A DNA stretch of 64,000 nt from a virus (IMGVR_UViG_3300018080_000003:1-64000); one strand, 5' to 3'; positions 1,158 through 55,769 are shown, counted from the first letter of the stretch. Numbers and translations: made by a program. Notes: generated from the letters alone by a model not told the origin.

Positions 1158-2183
1158 TCAGCGGTTCGATCTCATCCACGAAACAAGGGAGAAGCCAGCG
1201 ACAGCTCCCGCAGCGAAATAGAGCACCTGCTCCGAGCCACCCATGGCTGCGACCATCGTGGGCTTGGGAGGCTGCGCACTTGGCGCATGAGGGGGATTTT
1301 TTGGCGACGGCTTGGGCGTCGGGAGGGGCTTGGGCTTGTCCGTCCCAGGCGGAGCAGGCTTCGGCGGAGGAAGGTCCTTTTGCCGCACACCAGGGTGACG
1401 GTACTCGGGGAGCTTCCCCTCGTGAGAGATGATCGGCCAATACTTCTCGCTCGTCGCGAGGTACGGAACCGTCGTCGGGATGCACTCCGCCAAGTCCGGG
1501 TCGCAAAGCTTCCCATCGAGGCGAAGCAAGCGAACCGTCTGACTGTAGTCCGTGTAGCCGATGGGATGGGCCAAAGCCTGCGGCTGAAGCACCCCGACCT
1601 CACCAGGGAAGAGGATCGACTTGTAGTGCCCCTTGGCTGGCGTGATGTGCCAGCCGTACTCTGCACCCATGCCTGGACGCTGCCAGAGCGACTTGGCGAA
1701 CACCCAGTCTTTGCCTTGACCGGCTACGAGCGGCGGCTTGTCGAACCGCTTGTTCATCATCGCGTCGAAGATCTGCGCATCGACCGCCTGACTCTGCTCC
1801 ACCATCCGGTTGGTGTGAGCCATCGTTCCGTCGGCGTACCAGTTCCTGGCAATAGGCTGAAGCTTGATGTCAGCGGCGCGGTAGATCTCATCACTGAGCT
1901 TGGAAGTCAGCAACGTGACCCCCAGCTCATCAGCGATCCGTTGAGCTGCCTCGTGACTCGTCGTCACACGAACCGAGTCCTCTGCGTCTCCGATCCGAAG
2001 CGTGTCCTGGCTCGCGTAGAGCGTCACCAGCTCCTGATTCGGACCCACGACTTGAAAAGGAATCCAGTTGATAGGCGCGTAGTCACCTCGGCGCACAGCG
2101 TCGAGGATCATCGAGTCCCGCCGCTTGAACTCGTCGAGGTTCCTCCCCTTCGGGAGGGTCTGTACGAACGCGCTTCCCTTCAT
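1158..2183 (-). CDS. enzyme-like domain + Pro/Lys linker + C-terminal TM (possible virion cell-wall enzyme)
   Basis: Start re-assigned to ATG 2183 (MKGSAFVQ), just after the stop of the upstream gene. Motifs IGDAEDSVRV, AQRIAD, LVAGQGKD, YGWH, YTDYSQ recall a widespread uncharacterised bacterial family. Ends AAMGG-TM. Confidence 0.65.
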   Translation of the reverse strand: MKGSAFVQTLPKGRNLDEFKRRDSMILDAVRRGDYAPINWIPFQVVGPNQELVTLYASQDTLRIGDAEDSVRVTTSHEAAQRIADELGVTLLTSKLSDEIYRAADIKLQPIARNWYADGTMAHTNRMVEQSQAVDAQIFDAMMNKRFDKPPLVAGQGKDWVFAKSLWQRPGMGAEYGWHITPAKGHYKSILFPGEVGVLQPQALAHPIGYTDYSQTVRLLRLDGKLCDPDLAECIPTTVPYLATSEKYWPIISHEGKLPEYRHPGVRQKDLPPPKPAPPGTDKPKPLPTPKPSPKNPPHAPSAQPPKPTMVAAMGGSEQVLYFAAGAVAGFSLVSWMRSNR

Positions 2184-2187
2184 CGTC

Positions 2188-3252
2188 TCAGTCCAGATCG
2201 AGCATCCACACCTGACGGAAGAGGGCGTAGTCAGAAAGGGCAGAGCGGGCGCCGGCCTTGCTGCTGTTGTCGACGTACTCACTGCCCCGGACGCGCTCGG
2301 GACCAGAGCCAGGGCCGCCCATGACGTACTCAACGCCAGTAGCAGCAGCGACTTCATCGAGCGGAACAGGGCGTCCACGATGGGCCTTGAGGTAGTCACT
2401 GACAGCCTTCTTTTGCTCAGGAGTGAGCTGCTCCTTGAACACACGAGCGTTGCTCGTGTCAACCTTCCGGAAGCCCCAGCTCTGGCGAGCCTTGCCCTGC
2501 GCCGGGCGCGCGAGAGGACGATCGCCCATCATGCTCGTCGGTACCTGAACCCAAAGAAGCTCCTTGTCAGAGGCGTAGACTTCGACCGGTCGTCCGATCT
2601 CTTCAGCCTGTGCCGACCAGACCGCAACGAAGTACTGCGGAGGCATCGAGTCAGCGTCACGAAGCAAATCCCGAACAGCCTCTGAGTCCTTCTTGTCGAG
2701 ACGGACCTTCATCGGCTGCGTCGCCGTGATGTAGAAGAGGTGCGACCACGACTTCCGAAGGATCTTCATCCCGTCGTTGTAGATGACCATGAAGTCGACC
2801 TGCTGCTCCACAGGATCCACGACCAAGTCGATCTCCTCGCCCGGCAAGAGCGCCTCCAGCTCCTTCATCGCAGCCTGAAAGCCCTTCGCAGCCTTGTTGA
2901 TCTCAGACTTCGGACTCGTCGCAACCTTCTCGTCCCGGGTGAAAGCCTTCAGACGCGCCTGCGCGCCCTTGGTGACGTTGAACACGAACTGGACCGCCTC
3001 TTGAAGTCGATCCAAGTCATCCGTCGTCCAAGGCTCACCGCCCTCGTACTTGTACTTCTCGTCCGTAACCTCTTCGTCCGCGATGAACATCGCCTGACCG
3101 ACAGCACGACGGATGCTGCGCACCACATCGAGCTGAGACACCGGGGGAGGTTTCGGCGCACGCATCGCACGCTTCAATTCCGGACCCATCAGATACTGCG
3201 CGTTGCGCTGCGTCTTCCGAGTCGAAAGGCCCATTCGCTTGGTTTCAGCCAT
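2188..3252 (-). CDS. hypothetical protein
   Basis: 354-aa ORF, typical composition, tightly packed between neighbours. Confidence 0.75.
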   Translation of the reverse strand: MAETKRMGLSTRKTQRNAQYLMGPELKRAMRAPKPPPVSQLDVVRSIRRAVGQAMFIADEEVTDEKYKYEGGEPWTTDDLDRLQEAVQFVFNVTKGAQARLKAFTRDEKVATSPKSEINKAAKGFQAAMKELEALLPGEEIDLVVDPVEQQVDFMVIYNDGMKILRKSWSHLFYITATQPMKVRLDKKDSEAVRDLLRDADSMPPQYFVAVWSAQAEEIGRPVEVYASDKELLWVQVPTSMMGDRPLARPAQGKARQSWGFRKVDTSNARVFKEQLTPEQKKAVSDYLKAHRGRPVPLDEVAAATGVEYVMGGPGSGPERVRGSEYVDNSSKAGARSALSDYALFRQVWMLDLD

Positions 3253-3255
3253 GTC

Positions 3256-3864
3256 TCAACCTACAATCCCGTCTTTCTCGATATCGAGCGTCTTGCCAGT
3301 CACGAGCATCAAGGGACCTTCGCTCTTCGTGAACACGAAGATGAAAGGCTCATCCTTGCCACAGCCAACCTCAGACCAACGAAACTTTGAAGCGCCCAGG
3401 TAACCGTGGCGCACCGTCGACTTGACGATCCCATCGTCACGGCCTCTGCCGAATTTCGGATCATCGTCGTCGCCACCCGTGTAGAGCTTCAAGTTGATCT
3501 CTTCGAAGAGGCCAAGGATGGCGAAGGAATCCGGCATCGGAACCTCATCGAAGTAGACTTTCGGTCCGATGACCTTCCACTTCTTGTTCCGCTTGTAGTA
3601 GTCGTGAAGCAGCCCCGGCTTGACGAAAGCGCGGTTGCGACTCTCAGCAAGATGCTTGTACAGCTCGCCCGGACGAGCGCCCTTGTCGTTCTTCCGCTGC
3701 CACTTGTCAGAGCCATAGGCAACAGCGAGAGAATCTCCGACGTTCTGAAGGACACGCGGCCACTTCCAGCGGTACTTCTCTACGTACTCGACATCGCGAT
3801 CGTTGAAGGTCTTGACCATCCCCCGCGCGAGGTCTTCCGCCTCATATACCTTGACCCTAGGCAT
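3256..3864 (-). CDS. hypothetical basic protein
   Basis: Start re-assigned to ATG 3864 (MPRVKVYE), coupled to the upstream stop. Confidence 0.7.
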   Translation of the reverse strand: MPRVKVYEAEDLARGMVKTFNDRDVEYVEKYRWKWPRVLQNVGDSLAVAYGSDKWQRKNDKGARPGELYKHLAESRNRAFVKPGLLHDYYKRNKKWKVIGPKVYFDEVPMPDSFAILGLFEEINLKLYTGGDDDDPKFGRGRDDGIVKSTVRHGYLGASKFRWSEVGCGKDEPFIFVFTKSEGPLMLVTGKTLDIEKDGIVG

Positions 3865-4261
3865 CTTTGTTCCCGACGAAGGATACCAGGAGAGCCGATC
3901 CTGCGCCAAGAGCCACACCAAGAGGTACGGAGCCTCCTCGCTCCTTCTGGATGTAGTAGCCCAAGCCACCCGCCACGAGAACGTAGGGGATCAGGAGAGG
4001 ATTGCCCTTGAGATCGATGGAACCAATGCCTTGAACCGGACGGTTCTTGCAGTTCACCACCATGCCCTTGGCTTCCCAGCCAGTGCCAGCACGGCGAACG
4101 CCCGACGGAAGCCTGCGCCCCGCGTCTGCTGCAGGAACACCTACAGTGCCAGCCATCTGACCGTCACGAGGCGTCGGCAGGTCGCCGTTCGTAGGATGAT
4201 GCCCTGGACCCTCAAAGTACTCGTAGAGGCCGAGCTTGTCGTTGAAGCAGGAGTACATCAT
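3857..4261 (-). CDS. small membrane protein, C-terminal TM pair
   Basis: ATGA overlap at 4258-4261; GIG motif, then hydrophobic helices. Confidence 0.7.
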   Translation of the reverse strand: MMYSCFNDKLGLYEYFEGPGHHPTNGDLPTPRDGQMAGTVGVPAADAGRRLPSGVRRAGTGWEAKGMVVNCKNRPVQGIGSIDLKGNPLLIPYVLVAGGLGYYIQKERGGSVPLGVALGAGSALLVSFVGNKDA

Positions 4262-5088
4262 CGGCTTTTCTCCAAGAGCTTGTCCGTGGCCCACGGCAAC
4301 GCGTATCGGATCCCGATGTAGATGGCGCCCAAAGCCATCACGACCTTCCCCGCTTCAGACGTGATACCCGCCCACGGATCCTTCGCCTGTAACTCCTTCG
4401 CAGCTTCGATGCACTTTTCAACGGTAGCAGTGTCGCCCTCGGCCTGAGCCTTCAAGCACTGCTCGCGCATGAGGTTGTTGTTCACCTCCAAGCGCCGAGA
4501 GATGAACATGTAGTTCACGATCACCGCCGCCAAACCGATGACCGTCACGACAACAGCCCAGACCGCCATCGCAGGGATCCCCATCGCCGCCGGAGTGCCC
4601 TCGAAGATGTAACGAAGATCGCCGTCCTGATCCATCTTGACGATCATCGCGAACGCCTGGAGACGGTCGTTCTCATCCGCCTGGGCCCAGTTCAAGCTGA
4701 TGTTCGAGTTGGGGTCTGCGATCTCACGCACCACACGACCGCTCATCCAAGGACCGAGTCCGATGGATGCGATGACGTAATTAGCGATCACCCAGTCTTG
4801 AACCCGCGCCGCGTTGCCCATGTTGAGCACGAGGTAACGAGGAAGGCTCGTTTCCGGCGACTCCATCGCCTTGGAAAGGTCATCCTTGTTCCGCTCAGAC
4901 CAGCCACTCACCTGGCTCATGACCTGACGAGCGCGCTCAGGGTCAAACTCGAAGTTGGGAGCGTACTTCCGCAGAGAAGCCTCTGCAGAAGCACGGGCAA
5001 TCTGCAGGCGCTCCTGAGGCGTCGCGCCAGGAAACACGGGGAGTGAGCCCTTGATCCGATTCAGGGCAAGCTGCTGCAGACGCTCCAT
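4258..5088 (-). CDS. membrane protein (2 TM)
   Basis: AAMG followed by TM (AVWAVVVTVIGLAAVIV); second TM near the C-terminus. Confidence 0.75.
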   Translation of the reverse strand: MERLQQLALNRIKGSLPVFPGATPQERLQIARASAEASLRKYAPNFEFDPERARQVMSQVSGWSERNKDDLSKAMESPETSLPRYLVLNMGNAARVQDWVIANYVIASIGLGPWMSGRVVREIADPNSNISLNWAQADENDRLQAFAMIVKMDQDGDLRYIFEGTPAAMGIPAMAVWAVVVTVIGLAAVIVNYMFISRRLEVNNNLMREQCLKAQAEGDTATVEKCIEAAKELQAKDPWAGITSEAGKVVMALGAIYIGIRYALPWATDKLLEKSR

Positions 5089-5090
5089 GC

Positions 5091-6152
5091 TCAGAACACC
5101 TTCTTCTTGCGAAGGAAGTCCACCAGGAAGTACGCACCGACGGCGACACCACCGACCACAGCGACCTTCTGACCTGCCGTCAATGGCTTGCGCATCGAGA
5201 TGTCCAGCTCAGGAAGCACAACCGCACAACCATCCTGACCAGGCACGACTTCCATGCCCTCAGGGCAGCGCGGGATGCACTTGTTCTGCTCCCACGACCA
5301 CTTCAGGTTGATGTTGTTGCAGTCCCGCGGAGGAGCACCCTTGTTCATCTCACGAACGATCTGATCTCTCGTCGCACGGTTGCTGATGAGACTGCTCGCG
5401 CGCTCCTCGCGACCCTTCTCATCAGGCTCGTCTTGGGCCATCCGCCAATTGGCCTGGATACTGTCCTCGACGAGGTCCAGCTCATCGACCAACTGAGGGT
5501 TCGCCTGAGCGACAGGCCCATCACGCCAAGCCAGCGTCCAGCCTCTCGCGTCGTAGATGGGTCCCGCCTTCAAGACAGGAAACACCTTTGCATCCGGAGG
5601 CAAGTCCAACAGGCTGCTGAGATCACCACCACGCCACTGCACGTACTGCGAGAGCTGAGGGGCACCACCAAGCAGCTGACGCGCCGCTTGCGCCAACATC
5701 TCCATGCCGGCGATCGTTGGCTGAGGGCCGCCAATGACCCCCGTCTTCCCGCCCTGGAACTCGATCAGAAGCTGCGACATCGGAGGCGGAGACAGCAGGT
5801 ACCCCGCGAGGTCCTTGTAGCGGCCGATCGCCAAAACAAAGGCATCCGCCGTCGCGCCGTCCCATGCATCAGCATGCTGGCCACTCCGACGCATATGCTT
5901 CCAGGTGTCCTCGGTCTGAAGCTCCTCGGCCGGCGTCTGAAGCGAATCAGACTTCAGCTTCGAGAGATGGTAGAGGACGTCCTTGATCTCTTTGACGCGA
6001 CCCGGCTGGTTCAGGTCGTAGACCCGCTGCGCCTCGTCACCCATCGGTACGAGCGCGTACTGCCCCTCCTGAGGAGCAGACGTCGTGTAACCCTGGACCG
6101 AGCGCGAAAGACCGGTGCCGACAACTTCTCGGATCCCAAGAATCTTCGCCAT
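5091..6152 (-). CDS. tail-anchored protein with Cys-rich module
   Basis: Start at ATG 6152 (MAKILG), overlapping the upstream TGA; 4-Cys module; TM + RKKK. Confidence 0.75.
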   Translation of the reverse strand: MAKILGIREVVGTGLSRSVQGYTTSAPQEGQYALVPMGDEAQRVYDLNQPGRVKEIKDVLYHLSKLKSDSLQTPAEELQTEDTWKHMRRSGQHADAWDGATADAFVLAIGRYKDLAGYLLSPPPMSQLLIEFQGGKTGVIGGPQPTIAGMEMLAQAARQLLGGAPQLSQYVQWRGGDLSSLLDLPPDAKVFPVLKAGPIYDARGWTLAWRDGPVAQANPQLVDELDLVEDSIQANWRMAQDEPDEKGREERASSLISNRATRDQIVREMNKGAPPRDCNNINLKWSWEQNKCIPRCPEGMEVVPGQDGCAVVLPELDISMRKPLTAGQKVAVVGGVAVGAYFLVDFLRKKKVF

Positions 6153-6400
6153 CACTTCCTCGCATAGTAGTAGGCGCCGCCCGCCACAGCCATAGCTAGC
6201 AGACCAAGAGCCAACGGGTTCGCGACACACTTGCCAGATCCGTCCCGCTTCATCAGCGGACGAAACTTGCAGACACAACCCTCTCGGGACGCGTACCAAG
6301 TCTCATCCGTTCGACAGAGTGCAGGGCCGAGCTTCTGAACCTCCTCGGGGGTCAGACACTCACCCTTCCAGCTCTTCTGTCCAGCAGGACACGCCATCAC
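6152..6400 (-). CDS. small Cys-rich tail-anchored protein
   Basis: 6 Cys; C-terminal TM ending GGAYYYARK. Confidence 0.75.
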   Translation of the reverse strand: MMACPAGQKSWKGECLTPEEVQKLGPALCRTDETWYASREGCVCKFRPLMKRDGSGKCVANPLALGLLAMAVAGGAYYYARK

Positions 6401-6675
6401 TTGTTTCTTCCGAAGTAGTAGGCGCCCGCGATCACCGCAGCACCCAAGAGAAGCATCGACCCGCCCGCCATGCCAGCCTGCGCCATCGTGGGAGACGAGC
6501 CTGGGCGACTACTGGGTCCCGTCGGCCCCAAGTCGACCTCCTGGTAGCCGCGACTGCCGGGGACCTTGTACATGTAGTCTCTCTGCGAGCAGTCGCAGCG
6601 ATTCAAGAGCGTGTCATACGCACAAGGCGCACACTCCTGTTCCTTGAGGAAATCGAAGCCCAAACTCGTGTACAT
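6397..6675 (-). CDS. small Cys-rich tail-anchored protein
   Basis: Starts MYTSLG; 4 Cys; AGMAGG-TM-GRNK. Confidence 0.75.
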   Translation of the reverse strand: MYTSLGFDFLKEQECAPCAYDTLLNRCDCSQRDYMYKVPGSRGYQEVDLGPTGPSSRPGSSPTMAQAGMAGGSMLLLGAAVIAGAYYFGRNK

Positions 6676-6678
6676 GGC

Positions 6679-7071
6679 TCACCGCATCAGGAAGTAGACG
6701 GCCCCACCGATCACCACAGCACCGGCCGCGATGTAGGCCCAAGTCGGGATCCCACCAGGCGAAGCCGGCGGGTACTCATCGGGGTTGATCATGCCCTCAG
6801 GGCCCTGCTCGCCCGACCGCATCGCCTGCATGTCGATCAGACGCTGCTGCGTCGGAGCAAACATGATCGGCGTCTGCATGACAGCACGATTGATCATCGA
6901 CGGCATGTTCTGCGGAAGGGGCGCAGGCGTCCCCGGACCAGGAGCCGGAGGGGGCGCGGCCTGACTGCCGCCACTCGCACCGGGAGGGGGCGGAGGAGGA
7001 GGCGGCGGCGGCGGAGGGGGAGGCGGAGCCTGACCCATCGGAACAGACATGTGGAAGATCCCTTGACTCAT
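6679..7071 (-). CDS. poly-Pro tail-anchored protein
   Basis: MSQGIFHMSVPMGQ, long poly-Pro run, TM ending GGAVYFLMR. Confidence 0.75.
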   Translation of the reverse strand: MSQGIFHMSVPMGQAPPPPPPPPPPPPPPPGASGGSQAAPPPAPGPGTPAPLPQNMPSMINRAVMQTPIMFAPTQQRLIDMQAMRSGEQGPEGMINPDEYPPASPGGIPTWAYIAAGAVVIGGAVYFLMR

Positions 7072-7493
7072 CTCTGTGAACTCCTCGCCTGCGGCGTCAT
7101 ACGTGTGGCTACGGCCACAGCTGCAGTTCCGAGCAGGCCCGCGGTGCCTGCGAAGTAACCAGCAAGACCGCCTCCGAAGACGAGCATCGGCCGGTCAGAC
7201 TCCTTCGCCATCACCCAGCCCATGGCAGCTCCAAGAGCCGCATCGACGAAGGCATAGCCAGAAGCATGCTGAAAGATGGGCGCCGTCCCACCGAAACCGA
7301 GATAGGGCGACTCAGCGTACGGGCGCTCACGGTAGGTTGAACGCGCATCCGGAACCGTGTAATTCGGCCCATGGTACCGCGTCGGGTAGGGGTGCTTATG
7401 CGGCACGAGAGGGTTCGGCACGCCGCCGTAGGTGTAACCGAAGATGCTCGCCTGCTCCGGAGGAAACACCGTCTGCATTGCCTTGAAGCTCAT
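7068..7493 (-). CDS. small membrane protein
   Basis: Start at ATG 7493 (ATGA overlap); LGFG motif; Gly-rich TM segments. Confidence 0.7.
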   Translation of the reverse strand: MSFKAMQTVFPPEQASIFGYTYGGVPNPLVPHKHPYPTRYHGPNYTVPDARSTYRERPYAESPYLGFGGTAPIFQHASGYAFVDAALGAAMGWVMAKESDRPMLVFGGGLAGYFAGTAGLLGTAAVAVATRMTPQARSSQR

Positions 7494-7909
7494 CGACGAC
7501 GACCCTTCTTCTGGCTCTGCTTCCCAGCCATGTAGAGCAACGCGATGCCGCCCGCGGCCAAGGCGATCATGCCGACGTTCCCAAGACCTGCGGTCTGAGG
7601 CTTGGTCTGAGACTGCGGCTGAGCGCCACCTCCTCCGCCTCCGGAAGGGATCTGAGGCGTCGGCTGCTGAAGCACGTTCACACACTTCCCACCCTGGTCG
7701 AGGTAGGGAGGCGGACACCAGCACTTGCCAGCCGAATCACGGAACATGATCCGATCAGGACAAGGAGCAGGCTTCGGCGCAGGCTTGGTCAGAGCGTTCA
7801 CGCACTTGCCGTCCTCGTCCAAGTAAGGCGGAGGACACCAGCACTTGCCGTCCGGGTCCTTGAACATGATGGGGTCAGGACACCCCGTGTTTCCCATCGC
7901 AGAATACAT
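7490..7909 (-). CDS. tail-anchored protein with duplicated Cys module
   Basis: MYSAMG; two copies of CPDxIMFxDxxGKCWCPPPYLDxxGKCVN; AGLG-TM-KKGRRR. Confidence 0.8.
   Translation of the reverse strand: MYSAMGNTGCPDPIMFKDPDGKCWCPPPYLDEDGKCVNALTKPAPKPAPCPDRIMFRDSAGKCWCPPPYLDQGGKCVNVLQQPTPQIPSGGGGGGAQPQSQTKPQTAGLGNVGMIALAAGGIALLYMAGKQSQKKGRRR
7675..7882 (-). repeat. imperfect direct repeat (two ~88-nt copies, 120-nt period) encoding the Cys module
   Basis: 7675-7762 aligns with 7795-7882. Confidence 0.85.
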
Positions 7910-7918
7910 CTCTGAACC

Positions 7919-8776
7919 TCACTTCGCGTTGAGCGCACCGTAGACCAGGGCAGCAGCCACACCGACCGCGGCGCCAGCGAGTGCGAGCTGTCCGACCGTA
8001 GCCGGCTCTTTGATTTCTTCCTCTTCGCCGAAACCGCTGATCGGAATCGGACGAGTCGGGCCCACGTTCACCGTCGAAGTGAAGGGAACAGCCGGGTAGA
8101 TCGGCATGTCAGGCGCGGCGTGAGCAACGGGGTTCGCCACCGGATTCACGGGAGCCGGCGTCTGACGAGGGAACACGATGTTCTGCTTCGGGAGACGCTT
8201 GCGCTTGATGTTGAAAGGAACCGGACCCAACGTCGCGGGCGAAGAAGGAATGGGACCAACCGGAGCGGGCGACTGCGGTACGATGTGAGACATCGGGTTG
8301 TGAAGAGGACCAGCGAGCCGGCCGTTTCTCTCGACGTACGCCATGCCGCCACCCGGGACGTAGACCACGTCTGCACCCGAGTTGATGTCCTTCACGTCCT
8401 TGCTGACCGTGAAGGGGACGCCACGAGCGATGTAACCAGGCAGGTCGTAGCTGCTGGAGAACACCCCTGCGTCTGGGTTGCTCGTGCCCGTGCGACCAGG
8501 CGGATCGAAGATGCCCGAGCCGAAAGAGTCGTCTTCCTTCTCCAGCTCGTAGATCGCCTTGTTCTGGTAGCCCGGGTCAACACCCACGCTTCCCATCCCC
8601 GACGTCGAGCCCATGCCCGCGAGAGTTCTTCCGTACATCTTTCGCATCCTCTGCAAGTTGGCGCGGGTCTGGCCCGTGTAGAATTCGAGGTTTTGCGCGA
8701 TCTTGTCCCCGTAGATGGGGCCATAGTAGCGCTGGCGGCTGTTCACCGCGGTACGAGGGCTCAGTCGGCTCCGCAT
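7919..8776 (-). CDS. tail-anchored putative virion protein
   Basis: GMG x2, GSGIF, AGVF and SGFG motifs; C-terminal TM. Confidence 0.75.
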   Translation of the reverse strand: MRSRLSPRTAVNSRQRYYGPIYGDKIAQNLEFYTGQTRANLQRMRKMYGRTLAGMGSTSGMGSVGVDPGYQNKAIYELEKEDDSFGSGIFDPPGRTGTSNPDAGVFSSSYDLPGYIARGVPFTVSKDVKDINSGADVVYVPGGGMAYVERNGRLAGPLHNPMSHIVPQSPAPVGPIPSSPATLGPVPFNIKRKRLPKQNIVFPRQTPAPVNPVANPVAHAAPDMPIYPAVPFTSTVNVGPTRPIPISGFGEEEEIKEPATVGQLALAGAAVGVAAALVYGALNAK

Positions 8777-8819
8777 ACTGGTTTCCTTTCAGGCCCGACC
8801 GGGCTCAGTAGTTGCCGCT

Positions 8820-9311
8820 TCAGCCAAGCCCGTCGGGGCTCATGCCAAAGCCGGCCATGGTGATCTTGCGCATCGTCCGCTCCTGCGGGACGCTGCCACC
8901 GACGTACATGCCGGAGGTGTGCACCATGCCGTGGCCGAAGATGCCGCCTTCGGTGCGGCCATGAGGCGTCGGGACCGGACGACGCATCCCGATCGGAATG
9001 GGACGCGGGTCAGCGGCTTCCACCATCATGTGCGCGCCCATGCCGTGCATCGGCACGTAGGTCTTCATGTAGCCCATCCCGCCGTGCATGCCGGTGATGG
9101 GACGAACGGTCTGAGAGTCCCGGAAGGGAACCTCGGACCGGAACACGTCCTGGCTGACCATGTGGCCGCGCGGACTGTCCGTCGGAATTGTCGGACGACG
9201 CATGTCGATGTAGGTCGCCGGCACGTAGCCAGCTTCGAAGATGCCGCCACGGGTGTTGCCATGCGGCAGAGCCGGCGTGACGGGAGGCTGAAGGGGGAAA
9301 CGACGCATCAC
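8820..9311 (-). CDS. low-complexity protein with repeated GGIF and GMG motifs
   Basis: PHGxTxGGIF twice; GMG, GMG, GFG, GLG. Confidence 0.7.
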   Translation of the reverse strand: MMRRFPLQPPVTPALPHGNTRGGIFEAGYVPATYIDMRRPTIPTDSPRGHMVSQDVFRSEVPFRDSQTVRPITGMHGGMGYMKTYVPMHGMGAHMMVEAADPRPIPIGMRRPVPTPHGRTEGGIFGHGMVHTSGMYVGGSVPQERTMRKITMAGFGMSPDGLG

Positions 9312-9856
9312 TGTTCTTCCTTTTTCTTGGTCCAGAAGTAGTACCCTGCACCCGCAACGGCCAGAAGGCCAAGGCCAACACCCACGTACTTCCAGGTGTT
9401 GTTTGGGCCCTGTTGGGCCCCCGGCGCGAGAGCAGAAGGTTGCTCGTACGCCATCATCATCGGATCGGTCATCATGGGATCCATCATCGGATCACCAGGA
9501 ATCGGTTGAGGCTGTGGAATCACCTGTGCATCACCGCCCGGTTGGGGCTGCGGCATGGGCATCGGCGCAGGCGGACCCTGAGGGAACGCCGGCTCGTCAG
9601 CAGGAAGCGGGACCAGCGCCCCACCAGGGTCCTGCGGCATGTCCATGTCCGGAGACTGCGGCGTGCCAGGCTGCGGCGGAGGCGGACCCATGTGCGCCGG
9701 ACCAGGAGGCTGAGGAGCCGCTCGGAATGTCGGCTGACGAGGCGGAGGCGCGGGTTGGTACATGACCGGTCCACGCGCAGCTTGCCTGAGGGTCTGCTGC
9801 TGAGCAGCGATGCTCCCCGGATGACCACCGGACGAATATGTGAACGAATTCGACAT
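9308..9856 (-). CDS. Pro/Gln-rich tail-anchored protein
   Basis: Start at ATG 9856, overlapping the upstream TGA; TM + KKK. Confidence 0.75.
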   Translation of the reverse strand: MSNSFTYSSGGHPGSIAAQQQTLRQAARGPVMYQPAPPPRQPTFRAAPQPPGPAHMGPPPPQPGTPQSPDMDMPQDPGGALVPLPADEPAFPQGPPAPMPMPQPQPGGDAQVIPQPQPIPGDPMMDPMMTDPMMMAYEQPSALAPGAQQGPNNTWKYVGVGLGLLAVAGAGYYFWTKKKEEQ

Positions 9857-10455
9857 CAATCCAAACTCCAGAAGAGGACCTCTTTCGCGGTCTCTGCTGC
9901 TTCCCTTTCTCGGGGACCCGCTACCGGGTCGACCCAAATCCATCTGTTGCTCTTGGGTTCCTTGACCCGGTAGCCCACATGCGTGAGCTGACGGGGCGCG
10001 AAACCCAACGCTACCAGCTCGACCTCGCGACCAAGCTGAAGACACATCGTTGCACCCAACAAAGCGATCTCATCGCAGTCGGCCACGCAAACACCTTGCT
10101 GTGCGACCTCTTCAACCATCCGCTGCGGGTCCTTGATCCACTCGACGTGACGAGGATCATTCGCGTAGCGAAACATCCGCGCCCCTGCGCGCGTAGGGCT
10201 CGGCTGCAGAAAGCAGTTGCGGACCGCCAGAATCTCGCCCTGGTAGTCCTTCGGCCAGATGTCCTTCACCACGTACTCGGTGAACTGGCGCACGACAGGG
10301 CTCTGCTCGCCTCTCGGGCCAAGCGCGATCCGCTCCATCGCCTTGAGCGTGTCCTTTGGACCCGTAAAACCCGAGAATCTTGTGTCCTCGGGCGCACGGC
10401 CAAGCATCCCGCCCTGGGTTGGGGGACGAAGTTTTTGCTTTCCGAAGGGCTTCAT
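9856..10455 (-). CDS. transglutaminase-like cysteine protease/transamidase
   Basis: Catalytic-triad motifs DCDE, THV and WVDP in transglutaminase-fold order and spacing. Confidence 0.8.
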   Translation of the reverse strand: MKPFGKQKLRPPTQGGMLGRAPEDTRFSGFTGPKDTLKAMERIALGPRGEQSPVVRQFTEYVVKDIWPKDYQGEILAVRNCFLQPSPTRAGARMFRYANDPRHVEWIKDPQRMVEEVAQQGVCVADCDEIALLGATMCLQLGREVELVALGFAPRQLTHVGYRVKEPKSNRWIWVDPVAGPREREAAETAKEVLFWSLD

Positions 10456-14143: not shown

Positions 14144-14144
14144 C

Positions 14145-14726: not shown

Positions 14727-14730
14727 CTTC

Positions 14731-21438: not shown

Positions 21439-21440
21439 CC

Positions 21441-40088: not shown

Positions 40089-40092
40089 ATCT

Positions 40093-40341: not shown

Positions 40342-40348
40342 GCTCGTC

Positions 40349-40903: not shown

Positions 40904-40930
40904 TGCCCACCGAGGCATAGGAGAAAAGAA

Positions 40931-41551: not shown

Positions 41552-41555
41552 GCTG

Positions 41556-42236: not shown

Positions 42237-42883
42237 TGAAGCATCAGAGCTACGATCAGGCATGCCATGGCTACGGCGTCTACGCCAGCTTTGGCTCTGC
42301 TGCGGCTATCCCTTCGGCCGAAGAGGTGTTCCGCAACGTCGACAAGTACATCTTGAACGACGATGGCATCCAGGTGCTTCAGCCCCAGTTGCGCAAGGCG
42401 GCGATTGATGGCTTGGGCAAGACGACGCTCGGCATCATGGGCTCTGAGGACGGCCCGGTCATCACGGCCACGGCCACGGCGGACCTACTGGGCTTGAACG
42501 TGGGTGGCGGTTGGGCCGCGGACTACTTGGCCATGGGCTACGCGATCATGGGTGACAAGACCAGCGTGGGCAAAGGCTTGACGGGTCGCATCATGATGGC
42601 CAAGGCGCCGGGCTACATCAAGGACAACGCTGGTGTCGGTGGCAATTACGTCGTGATCGACGCGCCTCCTCAACTCTTGTTGGACGCCCAGAAGCTGGCG
42701 GCTGGCATCCCGCCGGGGATCCCTGGAAGTGAGATCCCTCCGGGTGGTGTCCTCCCTGAAGACAAGCAGAAGCAGCCTGAGTTCAAGGCTGCGGGTGCGG
42801 CGCCCACCTGGCTCGTGCCTGCAGTCGTTGGCGTGGGTCTGTTGACGCTGGGCGCTTTCGCGGTCAGCGCGAGAAAGAAGTGA
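42236..42883 (+). CDS. tail-anchored protein (paralog group A)
   Basis: TGATG overlap; YASFG; TM + RKK. Confidence 0.75.
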   Translation: MKHQSYDQACHGYGVYASFGSAAAIPSAEEVFRNVDKYILNDDGIQVLQPQLRKAAIDGLGKTTLGIMGSEDGPVITATATADLLGLNVGGGWAADYLAMGYAIMGDKTSVGKGLTGRIMMAKAPGYIKDNAGVGGNYVVIDAPPQLLLDAQKLAAGIPPGIPGSEIPPGGVLPEDKQKQPEFKAAGAAPTWLVPAVVGVGLLTLGAFAVSARKK

Positions 42884-43680
42884 CGACAATGCGCGGTTTC
42901 GGACAAGCTCCCGTTTTCATCGACCCCCCTGTCTACAACGACGGAGGGCTCAAGCGCGTGACGGCTGCGGCCAAGCCTGCGGCGATGTGGTCGCTGAACG
43001 CGACGACCGTCTTGGACCCGAGCCTTGGCTTCACCCAGAGGCCGTACAGCAACTTCAAGGACAGCTTTGAGCTGAGCGTCCCGAGCGGCCCTGGCACCAA
43101 CTGGCTGGATGCGAAGGTCAAGGAGGGATACGTGGTGATGCTGGTCCCGCCGGATCCGACGAACCTTGGCCCGAATCTCACGTTCATCATCACGAAGGAC
43201 CCGGTCGCGGTAAAGACCGCGTCTGCGTACATCAACCCGGTTGGTGCGGTGATCCTCGACGGCCCCCGTTCGGTCATCGAGGCGGCGAAGGGGCAGGCCC
43301 CCTCCGTCCCAGGTATCCCCGGCTCTGGCGGTACGTGCCCTCCCGGCAAGGTGGGTATTCCTCCTTTCTGTCTTCCTGTGCCTTCGGGCGGAGGAGGGGG
43401 TGGTCAGCAGCCCACGCCTCCTTTCGTTCCTCCGCTGCCGGGTGGTGGCGGCCAGAGCCCCGCGCCTACCCCGACGCCTTCTCCGACGGACCCGAGCCAG
43501 ACGCCGACCCCGGTCGTGCCGCCTCCGGCGCCCACACCGACCCCTGCACCCGCTCCCGCTCCTCAGAAGCCGGCAACGGCTGCGATGGGCGGCTCGGGAT
43601 GGGTCCTCCCTGTCTTGGTGGGGATCGGAGCCATCTCCCTCATCTCCCTGAGTGCTGCGAGCCGGAAGAAGCGTCGCTGA
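42880..43680 (+). CDS. tail-anchored protein with Pro/Thr stalk (paralog group A)
   Basis: MRGFGQ; PTPTP linker; AAMGG-TM-RKKRR. Confidence 0.75.
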   Translation: MTTMRGFGQAPVFIDPPVYNDGGLKRVTAAAKPAAMWSLNATTVLDPSLGFTQRPYSNFKDSFELSVPSGPGTNWLDAKVKEGYVVMLVPPDPTNLGPNLTFIITKDPVAVKTASAYINPVGAVILDGPRSVIEAAKGQAPSVPGIPGSGGTCPPGKVGIPPFCLPVPSGGGGGGQQPTPPFVPPLPGGGGQSPAPTPTPSPTDPSQTPTPVVPPPAPTPTPAPAPAPQKPATAAMGGSGWVLPVLVGIGAISLISLSAASRKKRR

Positions 43681-43707
43681 AATCACTCCTTCTGCTAGGA
43701 TTGCCAG

Positions 43708-44286
43708 ATGGAGATCGATTTTCGACAGATGCTCTTTGGGGTGGGCAGCACCGCTGTTCAGAGCCTCCGTTCGGGCAATCCGACCACCGACAGCTACGCA
43801 CAGGCGGCGGCTCGTCTTCTCCAGCATGCCGGCAAGTGGTCTGCGGTCAGCCAGTCGGGGGTACGTTGTACGACGCGTCAGCGCACACCGATCGGAACGA
43901 CTGAGATCTGTCGAGCCCCTGGGATTGGAGCCTGTGTCGTCTGTGACCAGCCGACTTGTTTCAACCACTCGATGATCTCTCCCCATGATGGAACGCAGAT
44001 CTGTTTTGGGTGCGTGGGGCGTTCTCAGCAGCAGTACCGTGCGGGTGGTCCGGCAGAAGCTCCTGGGGTCAGCGACGCTGAGAAGAAGGCGGATTGCCTC
44101 ATCGTACTTGGCCTCGCGGGAGAGGTGACTTGGGCTCAGGTCCAGGCGGTCTACAAGGCTATCGCCAAAGAGCAGCACCCCGACAAGTTCCCTCCCGCTC
44201 AACGGAAGGAGCAGGAGAAGAAATTCAAGAAGATCAACCAGGCCTATGAGTGGCTCAAGGCCCACTACGAGAAAGAAGCAGCATGA
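43708..44286 (+). CDS. J-domain (DnaJ-like) protein with Cys-rich zinc-binding domain
   Basis: VLGL...YKAIAKEQHPDK...FKKINQAYEWL; upstream CxxC...C..H...CxxC. Confidence 0.85.
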   Translation: MEIDFRQMLFGVGSTAVQSLRSGNPTTDSYAQAAARLLQHAGKWSAVSQSGVRCTTRQRTPIGTTEICRAPGIGACVVCDQPTCFNHSMISPHDGTQICFGCVGRSQQQYRAGGPAEAPGVSDAEKKADCLIVLGLAGEVTWAQVQAVYKAIAKEQHPDKFPPAQRKEQEKKFKKINQAYEWLKAHYEKEAA

Positions 44287-44579
44287 TGATTCGTGGATTT
44301 GGAGCCTTCGGGCAAGAGACCCCTGTCGTTCCTGGCATGCCTGGTGGCATCACCTCCATGGATGAACTTGGCCAGCAGGTCACCTCCGGCCTCGTCGTCG
44401 AGCTTGGGAACAAGCAAGAGGGCAACTACAAGTGCTACGAGCCGACCGAGAAGCAGGCGGCCGAGGGCAAGAAGGCCATGTGCGTGGGCTCTAAGCAGTT
44501 CTACACCATGAGCCACCTCGGAGCGCTTGCCATCGGTGGAGCTGTCGGCTTCGCCATCTGCAAGATGATGAAGAAGTGA
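44283..44579 (+). CDS. small tail-anchored protein
   Basis: MMIRGFGAFGQ; TM + KK. Confidence 0.7.
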   Translation: MMIRGFGAFGQETPVVPGMPGGITSMDELGQQVTSGLVVELGNKQEGNYKCYEPTEKQAAEGKKAMCVGSKQFYTMSHLGALAIGGAVGFAICKMMKK

Positions 44580-44583
44580 TCTG

Positions 44584-44982
44584 ATGTATACCTCTCTTGG
44601 ACAGAACTTGGACTACGGCTGGGTGTTCCTCTACGGACCTCCCGCCAAGGGTGCGGCTGATCAGTTCCTTGGTTGGGTCTACACCTCCACGCCCGGCGCT
44701 CAGGTGATCGCGAAGCGAGCCTCGGGCGCTATCCCGGGGTTCCTCGACTTCAGTGCGACCACAGGTCTAGGCTGGCAGCAGCTTCAAGAGATGATCAGCC
44801 AGAAGACGGGTGAGTTCAGTAGTCAGCTGACGCCTCAGTTCTTGAGCTACTACTATCCCGCGACCCCTCAGGTCGCTCAGACGGTGCGTACCATCATGCG
44901 TGGTATCATCACGACGTCCGACCGAGAAGGTTGGATCCGCCAGGTTCGAGTGTTCGACCCGAACCGCAACCAGATCCGGTGA
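44584..44982 (+). CDS. hypothetical virion protein (MYTSLG N-terminus, no TM)
   Basis: Shares the N-terminal motif with the TM-bearing neighbours. Confidence 0.7.
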   Translation: MYTSLGQNLDYGWVFLYGPPAKGAADQFLGWVYTSTPGAQVIAKRASGAIPGFLDFSATTGLGWQQLQEMISQKTGEFSSQLTPQFLSYYYPATPQVAQTVRTIMRGIITTSDREGWIRQVRVFDPNRNQIR

Positions 44983-44987
44983 CAGAC

Positions 44988-45344
44988 ATGTTCGGCTCCT
45001 ACTACGAGGCAGATTACTACCGCAACCCGGTCCCCTACCGGCAGAGTGACATCGGCGAGCCGGTGCCTGGTTGGGGTGTAAACCCGTTGGTGGCTGGTCC
45101 TGCTCGTCTCGGGGTGGGAGCGCCTCCAATGCTGGACACTTCGCTCATGCGGGCTTCGGCCGCGCAGATGCAGACGCCCATTCTCCAGATGCAGACGCAG
45201 CGTGGTGGCACAACGACTACGGAGGGTGGAGTCACGCCCGGAGCGGGCGCCCCGATGGCGCTCCCGTGGTGGACGTACCCTGCTGCTGCTGCGGTCGCGC
45301 TCGGCCTCGTGGGCTTCTACGGGACGAAGAAGGGTTGGTTCTGA
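44988..45344 (+). CDS. small tail-anchored protein
   Basis: MFGSYYE; TM + KKGWF. Confidence 0.7.
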   Translation: MFGSYYEADYYRNPVPYRQSDIGEPVPGWGVNPLVAGPARLGVGAPPMLDTSLMRASAAQMQTPILQMQTQRGGTTTTEGGVTPGAGAPMALPWWTYPAAAAVALGLVGFYGTKKGWF

Positions 45345-45345
45345 G

Positions 45346-46368
45346 ATGAGCTACGCAGCTGTTGGAAATGTTGGCTTCAACGTCCAGGTGGACATCCCTC
45401 TGTTGACGGGTGGCCCTGCGGCCGAGGACACTGGTGCAACGAAGCCGAATTGTCCTGGCAAGCTCATGTCGGCGAGTGGTAGCGGGCCTCCGGCCCGATG
45501 CGACGGTGGCATCCATGCGGTGAACTGCAAGGAGGTCTGTTGCAAGGTCGAGTCTTGGACGAACAACACGTACAAGGACATCGGCGGTGAGATCTCACTG
45601 CAGCGTTTGAACGAGTCTCGCATCGAGCACTTGTTCGCAGCGATCTTCGCCGGTGGTGGTCTTCAGAACATGGCCTACGACCTCGGCGTGAAGCCGCCCT
45701 CCCAGGCGGACATGGCGCGCTACAACGAGGCGTTCACCGACTACTTCCGCATCATGGACAAGAACCGCTGGGTTCTTGCGAAGGGCCCTCGTCGCGGCTG
45801 CGACGGTGGAGGCGTTTATGATGTGTGGCGGACGCGTCCGGGCAGGTCGACTTGGACTGTGCAGCGCGTGACGACGTTGGAGAAGCTTGTCGGAAGCCTC
45901 GGCGGCCCTGGTCGTGCGAAGGCCATCGATCAGGTGGGTGTGCCCTACAACCAGTTCCTCCCCCCGGCTCACACGGCGAAGATGGACGAGCTGATCAATC
46001 TCACGATGACGGTGCCCGGTAGCCGGATGGGCGATCGGGTAGGCATGATGCCCACGCTCGCAGCGGCCTTCCGGCCGCAAAACGGCCTGCTCATGCCCTA
46101 CGGTTGGTTTGCGACGTTCTTGCAGGCGCTTCGTCCGCCTCGGGTGATGATCTCAACCGCACTTGCGACGAAGTTCGGACCCCAGCAACAGCGCCTTGTC
46201 GATCTGATGAATCAGCCTGCGACGCAGCAGGCGGCCCGGGACACGACGCAGCCGGCGGCTCCGCCTCCGACAATGACCCAGCAAGAGGGTGGCATTCCCA
46301 CTGCAGCGCTTGTCGCTGGTGGGCTCTTGGTGGCGGGTGGCGTTGCGTTCATTGCTCTGAGAAAGTGA
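45346..46368 (+). CDS. tail-anchored protein with Cys-rich N-domain
   Basis: Start MSYAAVG at 45346; GGIPT-TM-RK. Confidence 0.75.
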   Translation: MSYAAVGNVGFNVQVDIPLLTGGPAAEDTGATKPNCPGKLMSASGSGPPARCDGGIHAVNCKEVCCKVESWTNNTYKDIGGEISLQRLNESRIEHLFAAIFAGGGLQNMAYDLGVKPPSQADMARYNEAFTDYFRIMDKNRWVLAKGPRRGCDGGGVYDVWRTRPGRSTWTVQRVTTLEKLVGSLGGPGRAKAIDQVGVPYNQFLPPAHTAKMDELINLTMTVPGSRMGDRVGMMPTLAAAFRPQNGLLMPYGWFATFLQALRPPRVMISTALATKFGPQQQRLVDLMNQPATQQAARDTTQPAAPPPTMTQQEGGIPTAALVAGGLLVAGGVAFIALRK

Positions 46369-46375
46369 TCTGGCC

Positions 46376-47749
46376 ATGTACGGCCTTGGTGTTCCCCCCA
46401 GTGAGACACTGGAAGACCTGAGAGAGCTTCAGGACTTCAAGTTCCCGTCGCCGCCGGAGAAGATGCAGGGCGTGATTGATGGGATCGATGCGGTCGTGCC
46501 CATCAAGAACATCAACTTGGATGTGGGCGGCATCATCAACCCTCCTGTTGCGAATCTGGTCACGGGTGTTCAGACGACCATCGAGAGCGCCACGGGGATG
46601 GGGTTCGGTCAGCTCGTCTCGCTGGCGGACAACGTCTACGGGCTCGCAAACGCGGCGAACACGGGGCAGTTCTTCATGGCGCTGAATCAGCTCATGAACG
46701 GAGCGCTGGACCTGGCGGCAGAGGCGAACGCGCAGGTCGCAGCGGCTGTGGAGTCGTTCCAGTCCATTCCTTACTTCGGGATGATCATGGATGCGATGCT
46801 GGGCTTCATCAGCGATGTGTTGAAGTCTCAGGCGCGGTACGCGGGAGCTACGGCGAAGTGCCAGCAGCGTGTGGACCAGAAGATGAACAACTTCTGCAGC
46901 ACGCTCTCTCGGCAGTCAACGCCTCGTCCGACGGGTCCGAAGGGGCAGACGCCTGCGGACATGTTCCGTCCCTTGGCGGTGAAGTACCAGCAGGGGAGCC
47001 GGAAGTACCCGGCGAACGTCTCTACGATGTACCTGCTCTTGTGCGGGGAGGAGACGCAGGGCTTTGGCTTCCCGCGCGGCCACAAGTTCCCTTCGGGGGT
47101 TCGGATTCAGATCCCTCAGGACACGCAGCGTCGAATGTGGCGTGTGATCCAAGGGCTGATGAAGCAGGCGAAGAACCCGTCGATCACAGCTGCTTTCTCT
47201 GAGCTGAGTGACGGGGATGACGGCTACAGCTTGATGCCCATCTTGCAGGACGTCGTCTACAACGAGTGGATGGCGGGCCGCCTGACGCGGAACACGCTGA
47301 ACTACCTCTCCGACTACGCGTTGAACTGGACCTACCACTACGAGGAGTGTCCAGATCTGACGAGGGGAGAGATCGGAGCCGGCGGCAAGCCTGCGGGTGG
47401 CGGAAGCTGCACTTCGCGTATCAACCTTGCCGAGGCTTTCGAGAAGTCGATCCAGACGTACAAGAATCAGCTTCGAGCGTATTACTGGGACCCGGTTCGA
47501 AACACGTGGAAGAATCCTCGCGGGGTCAAGTACAACATCAGCGGTGGTATTGCGAAGAACGCAAAGGCCAAGGGGCTCCTGACGCTGACTCCGAACGCCA
47601 TCAAGCAGTTGGAGCAGACGCAGAAGTCTCGCGGTGGCGTCGCCCCGCTTGCCCACCTGTCGGATGATCAGCGCAAGGCAGCGATCGCGACTACGGCTGT
47701 CGTGCTAGGAGGAGGAAGCTTCTTCTTGGCGCGGCGTCTTGCGAAGTGA
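46376..47749 (+). CDS. large tail-anchored protein
   Basis: MYGLG; amphipathic helical N-half; TM + RRLAK. Confidence 0.75.
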   Translation: MYGLGVPPSETLEDLRELQDFKFPSPPEKMQGVIDGIDAVVPIKNINLDVGGIINPPVANLVTGVQTTIESATGMGFGQLVSLADNVYGLANAANTGQFFMALNQLMNGALDLAAEANAQVAAAVESFQSIPYFGMIMDAMLGFISDVLKSQARYAGATAKCQQRVDQKMNNFCSTLSRQSTPRPTGPKGQTPADMFRPLAVKYQQGSRKYPANVSTMYLLLCGEETQGFGFPRGHKFPSGVRIQIPQDTQRRMWRVIQGLMKQAKNPSITAAFSELSDGDDGYSLMPILQDVVYNEWMAGRLTRNTLNYLSDYALNWTYHYEECPDLTRGEIGAGGKPAGGGSCTSRINLAEAFEKSIQTYKNQLRAYYWDPVRNTWKNPRGVKYNISGGIAKNAKAKGLLTLTPNAIKQLEQTQKSRGGVAPLAHLSDDQRKAAIATTAVVLGGGSFFLARRLAK

Positions 47750-48413: not shown

Positions 48414-48436
48414 GTTACCGTGGCAACCTCTTCGAC

Positions 48437-54409: not shown

Positions 54410-55140
54410 GGATTGCCGTCGCCGTTAAGAGCCACAATCCGATGGCTCACATGCGCATGCACCTTTTGGAGTCATGCATGAAGTCGGTGTACGAGGCGTT
54501 CCCTTACGATCCGTCGGGCGGGATTGTCTGTGAGAACTTCCTGTTCATGAATGGCTTCGATGACGGGAGCCAGGAGGCCCAGGAGGAGCTTGCCCAGTCC
54601 TTCGACTTCCACTGCCTTCCCATCAAGTCAACGGACGACAACTACACGCCGGGGGCGGGGGCGAACGTCATCGGTGACTTGCTCAGCTACCGTTGGCGTT
54701 CAGAGTTTCCGATCTTCGACGCGGTGGTGTTCAGCGACGATGACATGATCTGGCGCCCGCGTGCGGCTGAGATCGTAGCGCACCTCATCCTCAACAAGCC
54801 CGACAGCGTCAAGATCATCTCAGGGCTCCTGGAGCCAGACTGGGCGTGGAACAAGCCGCGCCGCACGGTCTCGACTCCGGCTGGCATCAACATGCTGGTT
54901 CGGGACAGTTGTCCGGGTGCAGGCTGGTTCTTCAGCCCAAGTGACTGGGCAGACCACATCTCACCGCACATCGAGCGGAAGTTCGGTTACGACTACGACG
55001 CTTGCGTCGAGCTGAAGAAGGCGGGTTTTGAAGTGGCTCAGGTTGATCTGGCGGAGCATGCTGGTTGGGGAGCATCGACCCATGGTAACGAAGCCATCAA
55101 CCACGGAAAGCCGCTTGATCGAAAGCGCTGGGGAGTGTGA
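54406..55140 (+). CDS. glycosyltransferase, GT-A/GT2-like
   Basis: N-terminal strand, GANV, VVFSDDD (DxD), GYD, EHAG. Confidence 0.7.
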   Translation: MRIAVAVKSHNPMAHMRMHLLESCMKSVYEAFPYDPSGGIVCENFLFMNGFDDGSQEAQEELAQSFDFHCLPIKSTDDNYTPGAGANVIGDLLSYRWRSEFPIFDAVVFSDDDMIWRPRAAEIVAHLILNKPDSVKIISGLLEPDWAWNKPRRTVSTPAGINMLVRDSCPGAGWFFSPSDWADHISPHIERKFGYDYDACVELKKAGFEVAQVDLAEHAGWGASTHGNEAINHGKPLDRKRWGV

Positions 55141-55280
55141 GCCTGAGGTCAGGTCGCGCGCCGACCAGCGGCTGATGCGCTGCGCCTGGTGCTACATTCT
55201 GCTGGCCCAGCCTCACCCATGGTACGACAAGGATACTGGGATGCTCTGGGGTCTTTGTCGTAGGTGCGTACCGGGTGGTT

Positions 55281-55289
55281 TGCTATACT
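55281..55289 (+). promoter_or_regulatory. extended -10 promoter
   Basis: TGcTATACT, 9 nt before the ATG at 55299. Confidence 0.45.
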
Positions 55290-55298
55290 ACTAGCGCC

Positions 55299-55769
55299 AT
55301 GGGCCAGTACACTTTCCAGCAGGGATTTAGCTACGTCGCAGCTTTCGACAAGCCTTGGATTGCCAGCTCGGGCATGATCAAGAGCGGCGTCGAGGACCAA
55401 GGCTTTCGGGTTGATGCCTACTACAAGTGCGAGAAGGCCCCCAACTTCCCCTTCGTCCCCCCGAGTCGCGCTCGCTGTGGCAAGGACTACGACCACGTGG
55501 CCGTGGTAACGCGGACGGCGCGAACGGAGCGAATCGATGTTCCGAAAGAGGTGAAGTGGATCGTCCAAGTTCCGAAGGCTCAGCCTTCGCCTCCGCCCAA
55601 GCCGCCTTCTGGCACGCTTCCGCAGCAGGGCCCATCGGGGCCCAACATCGCATCGTCGGCGCAGGCGCCGAACCTGTTAAAGACTCCAGGCAAGGAAACG
55701 CCGAAGTGGGTCTGGGCAGCGGCGGGCGGAGCCGGTATCATCGTGCTCTTGAAGTTGCTGGGCAAGTAG
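55299..55769 (+). CDS. tail-anchored protein
   Basis: Start MGQY at 55299; Pro linker; C-terminal TM + K. Confidence 0.7.
   Translation: MGQYTFQQGFSYVAAFDKPWIASSGMIKSGVEDQGFRVDAYYKCEKAPNFPFVPPSRARCGKDYDHVAVVTRTARTERIDVPKEVKWIVQVPKAQPSPPPKPPSGTLPQQGPSGPNIASSAQAPNLLKTPGKETPKWVWAAAGGAGIIVLLKLLGK

Follow-up and report, generated by a model that had tools for sequence, protein, structure and literature searches.

Within a 64,000-nucleotide stretch of viral DNA (bases 1-64000 of the 143,727-bp record IMGVR_UViG_3300018080_000003, which is classified as complete and carries direct terminal repeats; hereafter the window), a predicted cysteine enzyme of the transglutaminase fold (9856-10455) is encoded next to a long run of proteins that end in a transmembrane (TM) helix and share a short glycine motif, or tag. 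This raises the question of why so many membrane proteins of one virus carry the same tag, and whether the enzyme acts on it. In the reading favoured here, to which we assign a probability of about 0.5, the tags would be cleaved by the enzyme as the particle matures, in a protease-substrate relationship that perhaps includes docking before the cut.

A glycine tag in tail-anchored proteins

A sequence-only reading of the window had counted about 25 tail-anchored proteins, and precisely that number with a C-terminal TM helix was found here, i.e., 11 on the minus strand (1158-9856), 13 on the plus strand (38585-47749) and a further one at 55299-55769. Their general description was likewise borne out: at least two Lys or Arg residues are present in the tail behind the TM helix of 22 of the 25, none has a clearly signal-like N-terminus as judged by hydropathy (Kyte-Doolittle value of the best 12-residue segment at most 1.5), and the motif [GSA][LMFVI]G is present in the pre-anchor part of 21. 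Within the first 12 residues, the motif was found in nine of the 25 anchored proteins versus five of 166 other proteins (Fisher test, 3.5e-6), while local, composition-matched shuffles gave an expectation of about 2.1 for the anchored set (p=2e-4). Gene and motif positions required small corrections only (proteins are designated here by the first coordinate of their gene): the MRGFG protein begins at the ATG at 42889, 42880 being an upstream GTG; 44584 carries the motif and has no TM helix; and the motif is absent from 6152, 6679 (which has only a VPMG variant), 9308-9856 and 55299. The core protein of the virus probably starts at the GTG at 33107.

The comparison was extended to a clade of 88 related loci which, together with the window genome, provided 428 non-redundant tail-anchored proteins in 189 families. 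GLG proved, with no prior, to be the most enriched trimer in the first 40 residues of these proteins (95 versus 19 expected), followed by GFG, and the tag rate is highest in the first 10 residues; with one member taken from each of the 189 families, 59 occurrences within 15 residues were observed versus 15 expected. The full tag of the clade comprises five residues, hydrophobic-x-G-[L/F/M]-G, and its density is approximately 30-fold higher in anchored proteins (3.1 per 1000 residues) than in the non-structural proteins of the window genome (0.10). The position two before the first Gly, which had not been selected for, is hydrophobic in 63% of cases compared to a background of 25%, and is never acidic. 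Each core position matters, as [MLI]xG[LMF]G exceeds shuffled sequences 10.2-fold, compared to 0.98-fold for [MLI]xG[not LMF]G, 1.13-fold for [MLI]xGG and 0.8-1.1-fold for neighbouring patterns. GLG is encoded by 62 different 9-mers; since its codons vary freely, an origin in DNA repeats is excluded, and the tag is selected at the protein level. A double-glycine leader was also considered and was rejected, GG being enriched only 1.15-fold.

A second, smaller peak of the tag is located directly ahead of the TM helix (G[LMF]G, 45 observed versus 12 in shuffled sequences), and the pre-TM motif noted earlier in the window is thus real across the clade, where it is limited to 45-68 of the 428 anchored proteins. 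The enrichment of Gln or Asn behind the motif that had been noted at the same time holds in the window genome, where either residue follows eight of 20 N-terminal motifs (p=9e-5), but not in the relatives, in which Gln accounts for 4.7% of followers versus a background of 4.3% (9% when weighted by family) and the tag is most often followed by Ala. A second short motif, GG-[IV]-F-[GDE], is 8-fold enriched, occurs in 26 clade families and is absent from non-structural proteins. Its sites in the window lie in 8820-9308, 7919-8776 and 412-1143 and at the end of 33107-35356, and the core proteins of the clade end in G-[IV]-F-G/A.

Tag placement and the core protein

Among orthologs, the tag persists at the borders of linkers and of TM helices while the flanks diverge, as exemplified by the families of 7919, 4258 and 7068 (counts in Table 1). 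The core proteins of the clade consist of a basic N-terminal half, 2-4 predicted hydrophobic helices and a non-basic C-terminal part of short repeats, the sequence of which varies by lineage while the tag is retained at the repeat junctions; tag density is 45.6 per 1000 residues in the C-terminal part versus 5.0 in the N-terminal half. If the number of helices is odd, all tags of the core protein would be found across the membrane from the basic segments, which is also the arrangement in the anchored proteins, and this tagged face would be the shell-facing side.

The start of 39250 (39250-39340) repeats the core-protein repeat unit (~34870-34915), with identical blocks of 14 and 18 nucleotides. 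A core protein and one anchored protein likewise share a repeat at one of the related loci (L007).

The transglutaminase-fold enzyme

The Cys-His-Asp transglutaminase-like enzyme that the sequence-only reading had placed at 9856-10455 is supported by both fold and triad. Its structure was predicted with a pLDDT (predicted local distance difference test) score of 89, and the ten top structural matches all belong to the transglutaminase superfamily, the best being 3kd4 (Z 13.5, root-mean-square deviation 2.8, 143 aligned residues). Other fold matches include factor XIII, TG2 and TG3 (Z 10-11), PNGase (9.6), LapG and PeiP (both 8.4), as well as arylamine N-acetyltransferases and PeiW. The catalytic triad is near-invariant among 121 close homologs (C127 in all 121, H159 and D176 in 120). 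The window enzyme itself has no match to PF01841 while its homologs do match this family; PDB sequence searching was uninformative (best E-value 0.04), and Pfam, NCBIfam and PHROGs searches with the enzyme and the capsid proteins gave no match.

The expected co-occurrence of motif and enzyme was confirmed in contigs chosen by their capsid protein, 14 of 14 of which hold one enzyme copy, one of these matches including a stop codon beside a 177-residue open frame; these contigs are kin and do not represent independent events. A profile of the enzyme recovered 1,106 homolog clusters at 50% identity. Of 149 distant homolog matches, 14 were scored as tail-anchored. The close family was not found in GTDB genomes or, by single-sequence tblastn, in GenBank phages. 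Five homologs (P0012, P0242, P0251, P0253 and P0268) contain inteins (Hint, LAGLIDADG) directly before the catalytic Cys, a placement that is typical of essential genes, and because these inteins sit at the catalytic Cys the enzyme is apparently essential. Neither the Pfam families listed for the complete genome nor a PF02902 search revealed a further protease for protein maturation, and separate wall enzymes (M15, SLT) are present. The enzyme gene had been regarded as the first of the left operon; it does head the run of anchored proteins, but same-strand genes are present upstream and it need not start the transcript.

Salisaeta phage SSIP-1, distant loci and control viruses

The best viral structural match of the enzyme is gp34 (I1ZBG7) of the Salisaeta phage SSIP-1, homology being corroborated by hidden Markov model searches (E-value 8.5e-10 with the close profile and 2.9e-39 with the distant profile). 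gp34 is annotated as a structural (virion) protein in a record that states no function, and its layout is that of an enzyme domain followed by a tag (residues 211-213) and a TM anchor. In the window and in SSIP-1 alike, the gp34-family enzyme adjoins a run of anchored proteins, and the SSIP-1 anchored proteins gp34, 36, 52 and 53 contain five G[LMF]G motifs in 1569 residues versus two in the 5047 residues of open reading frames (ORFs) 2-32. Furthermore, six loci with distant enzymes exhibit the same run of anchored proteins and a pooled G[LMF]G count of 54 versus 23.4 expected (p=4e-8), the enrichment being individually weak in two of them (L138 and L139). The internal-membrane viruses HCIV-1 and PRD1 possess no enzyme homolog and display no tag enrichment (5 versus 8.3 expected).

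A proposed maturation step and its rivals

In the mechanism proposed here, the membrane proteins would be anchored via their C-terminal helix, with the DNA on the side of the basic tails and of the core protein's basic half, and the shell on the side of the tagged parts. The sequence hydrophobic-x-G-[L/F/M]-G would constitute the recognition site of the transglutaminase-fold cysteine enzyme which, acting as a maturation protease, would trim the short N-terminal leaders, cut the core-protein repeats, free some domains beside their anchors and remove its own leader. By analogy with adenain, the cut bond may be that between Leu and Gly, or it may follow the last Gly. The tag may also load proteins before it is cut, in the manner of the T4 capsid-targeting sequence. 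In phage T4 (capsid-targeting sequence and prohead protease gp21) and in vaccinia virus (A17, D13 and I7), a short N-terminal peptide first directs a protein into the particle and is then removed by cleavage; these systems differ from the one considered here in motif, enzyme and virus lineage. A protease and its substrates represent the simplest account of an apparently essential, virion-associated cysteine enzyme that coincides with a strict five-residue tag on one membrane face. There is an even chance, in our estimate, that large jelly-roll viruses of bacteria, in a widespread lineage that includes SSIP-1, mature in this way, i.e., via a transglutaminase-fold protease or transpeptidase which acts at an adenain-like site in dozens of anchored proteins and in the core protein.

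Several observations weigh against cleavage at the tag, which, like binding, we infer from co-occurrence and tag placement. Many leaders are merely 3-7 residues long and would be cut without obvious purpose, 8820-9308 has a tag as its C-terminal end, and conservation N-terminal of the tag is no higher than after it (p=0.36). The looser motif [GSA][LMF]G was found in 318 of the 428 anchored proteins, with 190 expected by chance, and about one quarter of the clade's anchored proteins lack even that. The fold of the enzyme also spans cell-wall isopeptidases, PNGases and acyltransferases. The association of motif and enzyme is itself weakly touched by P23-77 (10 versus 6.0, p=0.08) and STIV (6 versus 2.6, p=0.05), both of which exhibit a slight tag excess and no detectable enzyme homolog; GLG or ALG, in small numbers, is located near the N-termini of ORF18, VP19 and VP22 of P23-77 and of B130 of STIV. 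Finally, the second motif GG[IV]F may indicate that these viruses use peptide docking tags generally.

The motifs of P23-77 and STIV, leaders of so few residues, the tag at the C-terminus of 8820 and GG[IV]F are the reasons why the main rival stays alive, albeit as a less probable reading, namely that the tag is never cut and serves as a docking or sorting peptide which binds the jelly-roll shell or an assembly factor (e.g., the products of 11630-14143, 14731-15528 or 3256-3864) and so gathers the membrane proteins, the enzyme having another substrate such as the host wall or being a tagged passenger itself. The multivalent core-protein repeats, a copy of which stands at the start of 39250, would suit such a role, as would the position of the tags opposite the basic, DNA-facing segments of core proteins and the occurrence of PeiP/PeiW among the fold matches. 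A universal single-copy enzyme with active-site inteins is, however, unlike an exchangeable lysin, and M15 and SLT provide separate wall enzymes; tags at TM borders suit release better than docking, and no enrichment is seen in the enzyme-less HCIV-1 and PRD1. 

It appears rather unlikely that the enzyme is instead a transpeptidase or acyltransferase that, after cutting at the tag, links the product to another protein or to a lipid, or acylates the new N-terminal Gly, thereby knitting the membrane layer. No acceptor motif was identified, and the catalytic segment D-C-D-[ED] is closer to that of LapG-type proteases than to that of animal transglutaminases, although the fold allows acyl transfer (transglutaminases and arylamine N-acetyltransferases are among the matches), a cut between Leu and Gly would expose an N-terminal Gly, the usual sortase acceptor, and the very short leaders would be given a purpose. 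Classical transglutamination of a Gln beside the tag, which the sequence-only reading had offered as cross-linking via the adjacent Gln, would agree with the excess of Gln or Asn in the window genome, but must be considered highly improbable given the near-background Gln frequency and the prevalence of Ala in the relatives; animal-type cross-linking was rejected, as a conserved acceptor Gln at the tag was not encountered there. Least credible of all is that the motif merely reflects a Gly-rich composition, repeated DNA or duplicated genes: the proteins are indeed rich in Gly and Ala and one local duplication links the core repeat to 39250, but composition-matched shuffles are exceeded in the window as well as at the protein and family levels of the clade, which, together with the codon analysis, refutes a compositional or DNA-repeat artefact.

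Comparison with known systems

The adenovirus protease has the consensus (M/I/L)XGX↓G (arrow, cut), of which the tag is a narrower form, and the adenovirus sites IVGL↓G and QRGF↓G fit the tag (PMC4246237), so that the likeness to an adenain-type Gly motif that had been noted in the window stands. Adenain, vaccinia I7 and African swine fever virus pS273R furthermore resemble the present case in that a virus-encoded cysteine enzyme of a jelly-roll virus is accompanied by many structural proteins with a short Gly motif. The enzymes are nevertheless unrelated: theirs possess a Ulp1-like fold with the order His-Asp-Cys, whereas the enzyme described here is transglutaminase-like with the order Cys-His-Asp, and PF02902 has no match in the genome; membership of the adenain family was rejected on the basis of fold and triad order. 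In addition, neither the XGG↓X form nor the I7 AG motif is enriched here, the host is bacterial, and most of the putative substrates are membrane proteins with a tail anchor.

Sortase, exosortase and rhombosortase (GlyGly-CTERM) systems share a C-terminal TM helix with a basic tail and, in a minority of the proteins (45 versus 12), a pre-TM tag. The earlier analogy to these systems did not hold, as signal peptides were not seen by hydropathy, the tag is mainly N-terminal or repeated and LPxTG was counted zero times; an NCBIfam sorting-signal search of nine anchored proteins gave no match, and no sortase, exosortase or rhomboid gene is among the Pfam families listed for the genome, the enzyme being outside these families. 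Membership of a sortase-type system was rejected. LapG cleaves an N-terminal linear motif of one adhesin, and LapG as well as PeiP/PeiW share the fold (Z 8.1-8.4) and the Cys-His-Asp triad of the window enzyme. Identity is, however, only 11-15%, the window enzyme has no wall-binding domain, and dozens of putative virion substrates contrast with the one host protein or the cell wall acted upon by LapG and the Pei enzymes.

Reviews hold that jelly-roll viruses gained a Ulp1-like maturation protease only in a eukaryotic host, as a key difference from the bacterial tectiviruses (PMC4405056, PMC6260650). Were the cleavage reading correct, a bacterial lineage with an unrelated enzyme and nearly the same motif would represent a convergent, independent prokaryotic invention of this maturation step, and a function would be provided for SSIP-1 gp34 and for more than 1000 uncharacterised homolog clusters. 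As SSIP-1 is cultured, the reading is testable on a phage in culture. Even a mere docking peptide would reveal an undescribed rule by which membrane proteins devoid of signal peptides are loaded into a bacterial virus. In a literature search that most subscription papers lay outside, no paper was found that links jelly-roll viruses or SSIP-1 with a transglutaminase-like enzyme or that describes the pattern of tag and enzyme.

The virus and its genome

The virus is large, tailless and related to SSIP-1, and probably has an internal membrane. Its genome encodes a primase, helicases and a PD-(D/E)XK nuclease, and no tailed-phage hallmark is present among the Pfam families listed for it. A bacterial host is indicated by peptidoglycan-binding and M15 domains; among the anchored proteins, 40349 contains a PG_binding_1 domain, and 39250 has a weak one in addition to the repeat that it shares with the core protein. 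Metagenomes commonly contain relatives of 95-182 kb; the lineage has no match in the GenBank phage set or in PHROGs.

The 251-residue product of 35513 is a predicted beta-sandwich whose best structural match is the jelly-roll protein VP10 of SPV1 (Z 6.4, weak). In sequence, this capsid candidate matches I1ZBH9 (E-value 0.011, weak), which is SSIP-1 gp46 as assigned from protein length and numbering; both matches are weak and they are mutually consistent. SSIP-1 thus resembles the window virus by its homologous gp34 and by gp46 as the best, weak match to the capsid candidate, and differs by its size (44 kb versus 144 kb), by a gp34 that is membrane-anchored whereas the window enzyme is soluble, and by a P-loop ATPase (gp40) in its structural block, none having been found here. 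Across the complete 143.7-kb genome, the structural operons contain no Walker A candidate for a packaging ATPase and Pox_A32 has no match. Because the core protein is very basic and no packaging ATPase is recognisable, assembly around condensed DNA is suggested.

Table 1. Coordinates of the enzyme, capsid-module and membrane-protein genes of the window
Feature	Coordinates	Strand	Remarks
Transglutaminase/papain-fold cysteine enzyme	9856..10455	-	Triad C127-H159-D176; variable N-terminal leader ends in M/F-L-G tag variant
Core/major membrane protein	33107..35356	+	Basic N-half (33% K+R, 0 tags); 2-3 hydrophobic helices; 7 tags in the C-part, within repeats of 9-12 residues
Single jelly-roll capsid candidate	35513..36268	+	Ends without nearby tag
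Second conserved capsid-module protein	36408..37550	+	Probable second jelly roll, inferred from position
Third conserved capsid-module protein	37561..38460	+	Tag at residue 64, at the same spot in only 4/14 orthologs
Tail-anchored protein	1158..2183	-	Tag directly ahead of TM
Conserved tail-anchored protein	3857..4261	-	Tag ahead of TM region, kept in 15/32 orthologs
Conserved two-TM protein	4258..5088	-	Tag abuts internal TM on its N-side; 13/14 orthologs
Three tail-anchored, partly Cys-rich proteins (5091, 6152, 6397)	5091..6675	-	6397-6675 begins with tag
Three membrane proteins	6679..7909	-	Variant tag in 6679; 7068 from a conserved family (18/23 with tag); 7490 with Cys-rich repeats, tagged both at its start and pre-TM
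Conserved tail-anchored protein	7919..8776	-	Two conserved tags, 27/35 orthologs each; also second G-[IV]-F motif
Soluble low-complexity protein	8820..9308	-	Tagged four times, the final tag forming the C-terminus; GG[IV]F present twice
Pro/Gln-rich tail-anchored protein	9308..9856	-	Canonical tag absent
Nine tail-anchored proteins (38585, 39250, 39840, 40093, 40349, 40931, 41556, 42236, 42889)	38585..43680	+	Tags in all nine
Four tail-anchored proteins (44283, 44988, 45346, 46376) and soluble 44584, tagged	44283..47749	+	
Tail-anchored protein without tag	55299..55769	+	

Upstream of the enzyme, a conserved minus-strand block (11630-15528) contains 11630-14143, which encodes an 837-residue coiled-coil protein conserved in 41 loci, 14145-14726, and 14731-15528, which encodes a 265-residue Cys-containing protein found in 36 loci; the coiled-coil and the Cys-containing protein are candidate assembly factors. 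In SSIP-1, too, gp34 is preceded by a coiled-coil gene (gp33). The soluble product of 3256-3864 (minus strand) is conserved in 38 loci with a near-invariant C-terminal GIVG, has no Pfam match and, by language model, weakly resembles the ELLD family PF25309 (score 0.90). Within the plus-strand run of anchored proteins, 43708-44286, present in nine loci, encodes a soluble protein with a J-domain-like C-terminus that could aid folding or membrane insertion. Several signal-less anchored proteins encoded in 5091-7909 and 45346-47749 are Cys-rich (4-8 Cys), and no viral thiol oxidase is among the Pfam matches listed for the genome. A cluster of long, enzyme-like genes at 49471-56849 probably accounts for the genome's Pfam matches to glycosyltransferases and methyltransferases, and is followed at 56875-63777 by four long, paralogous, fibre-like genes whose products have similar N-termini.

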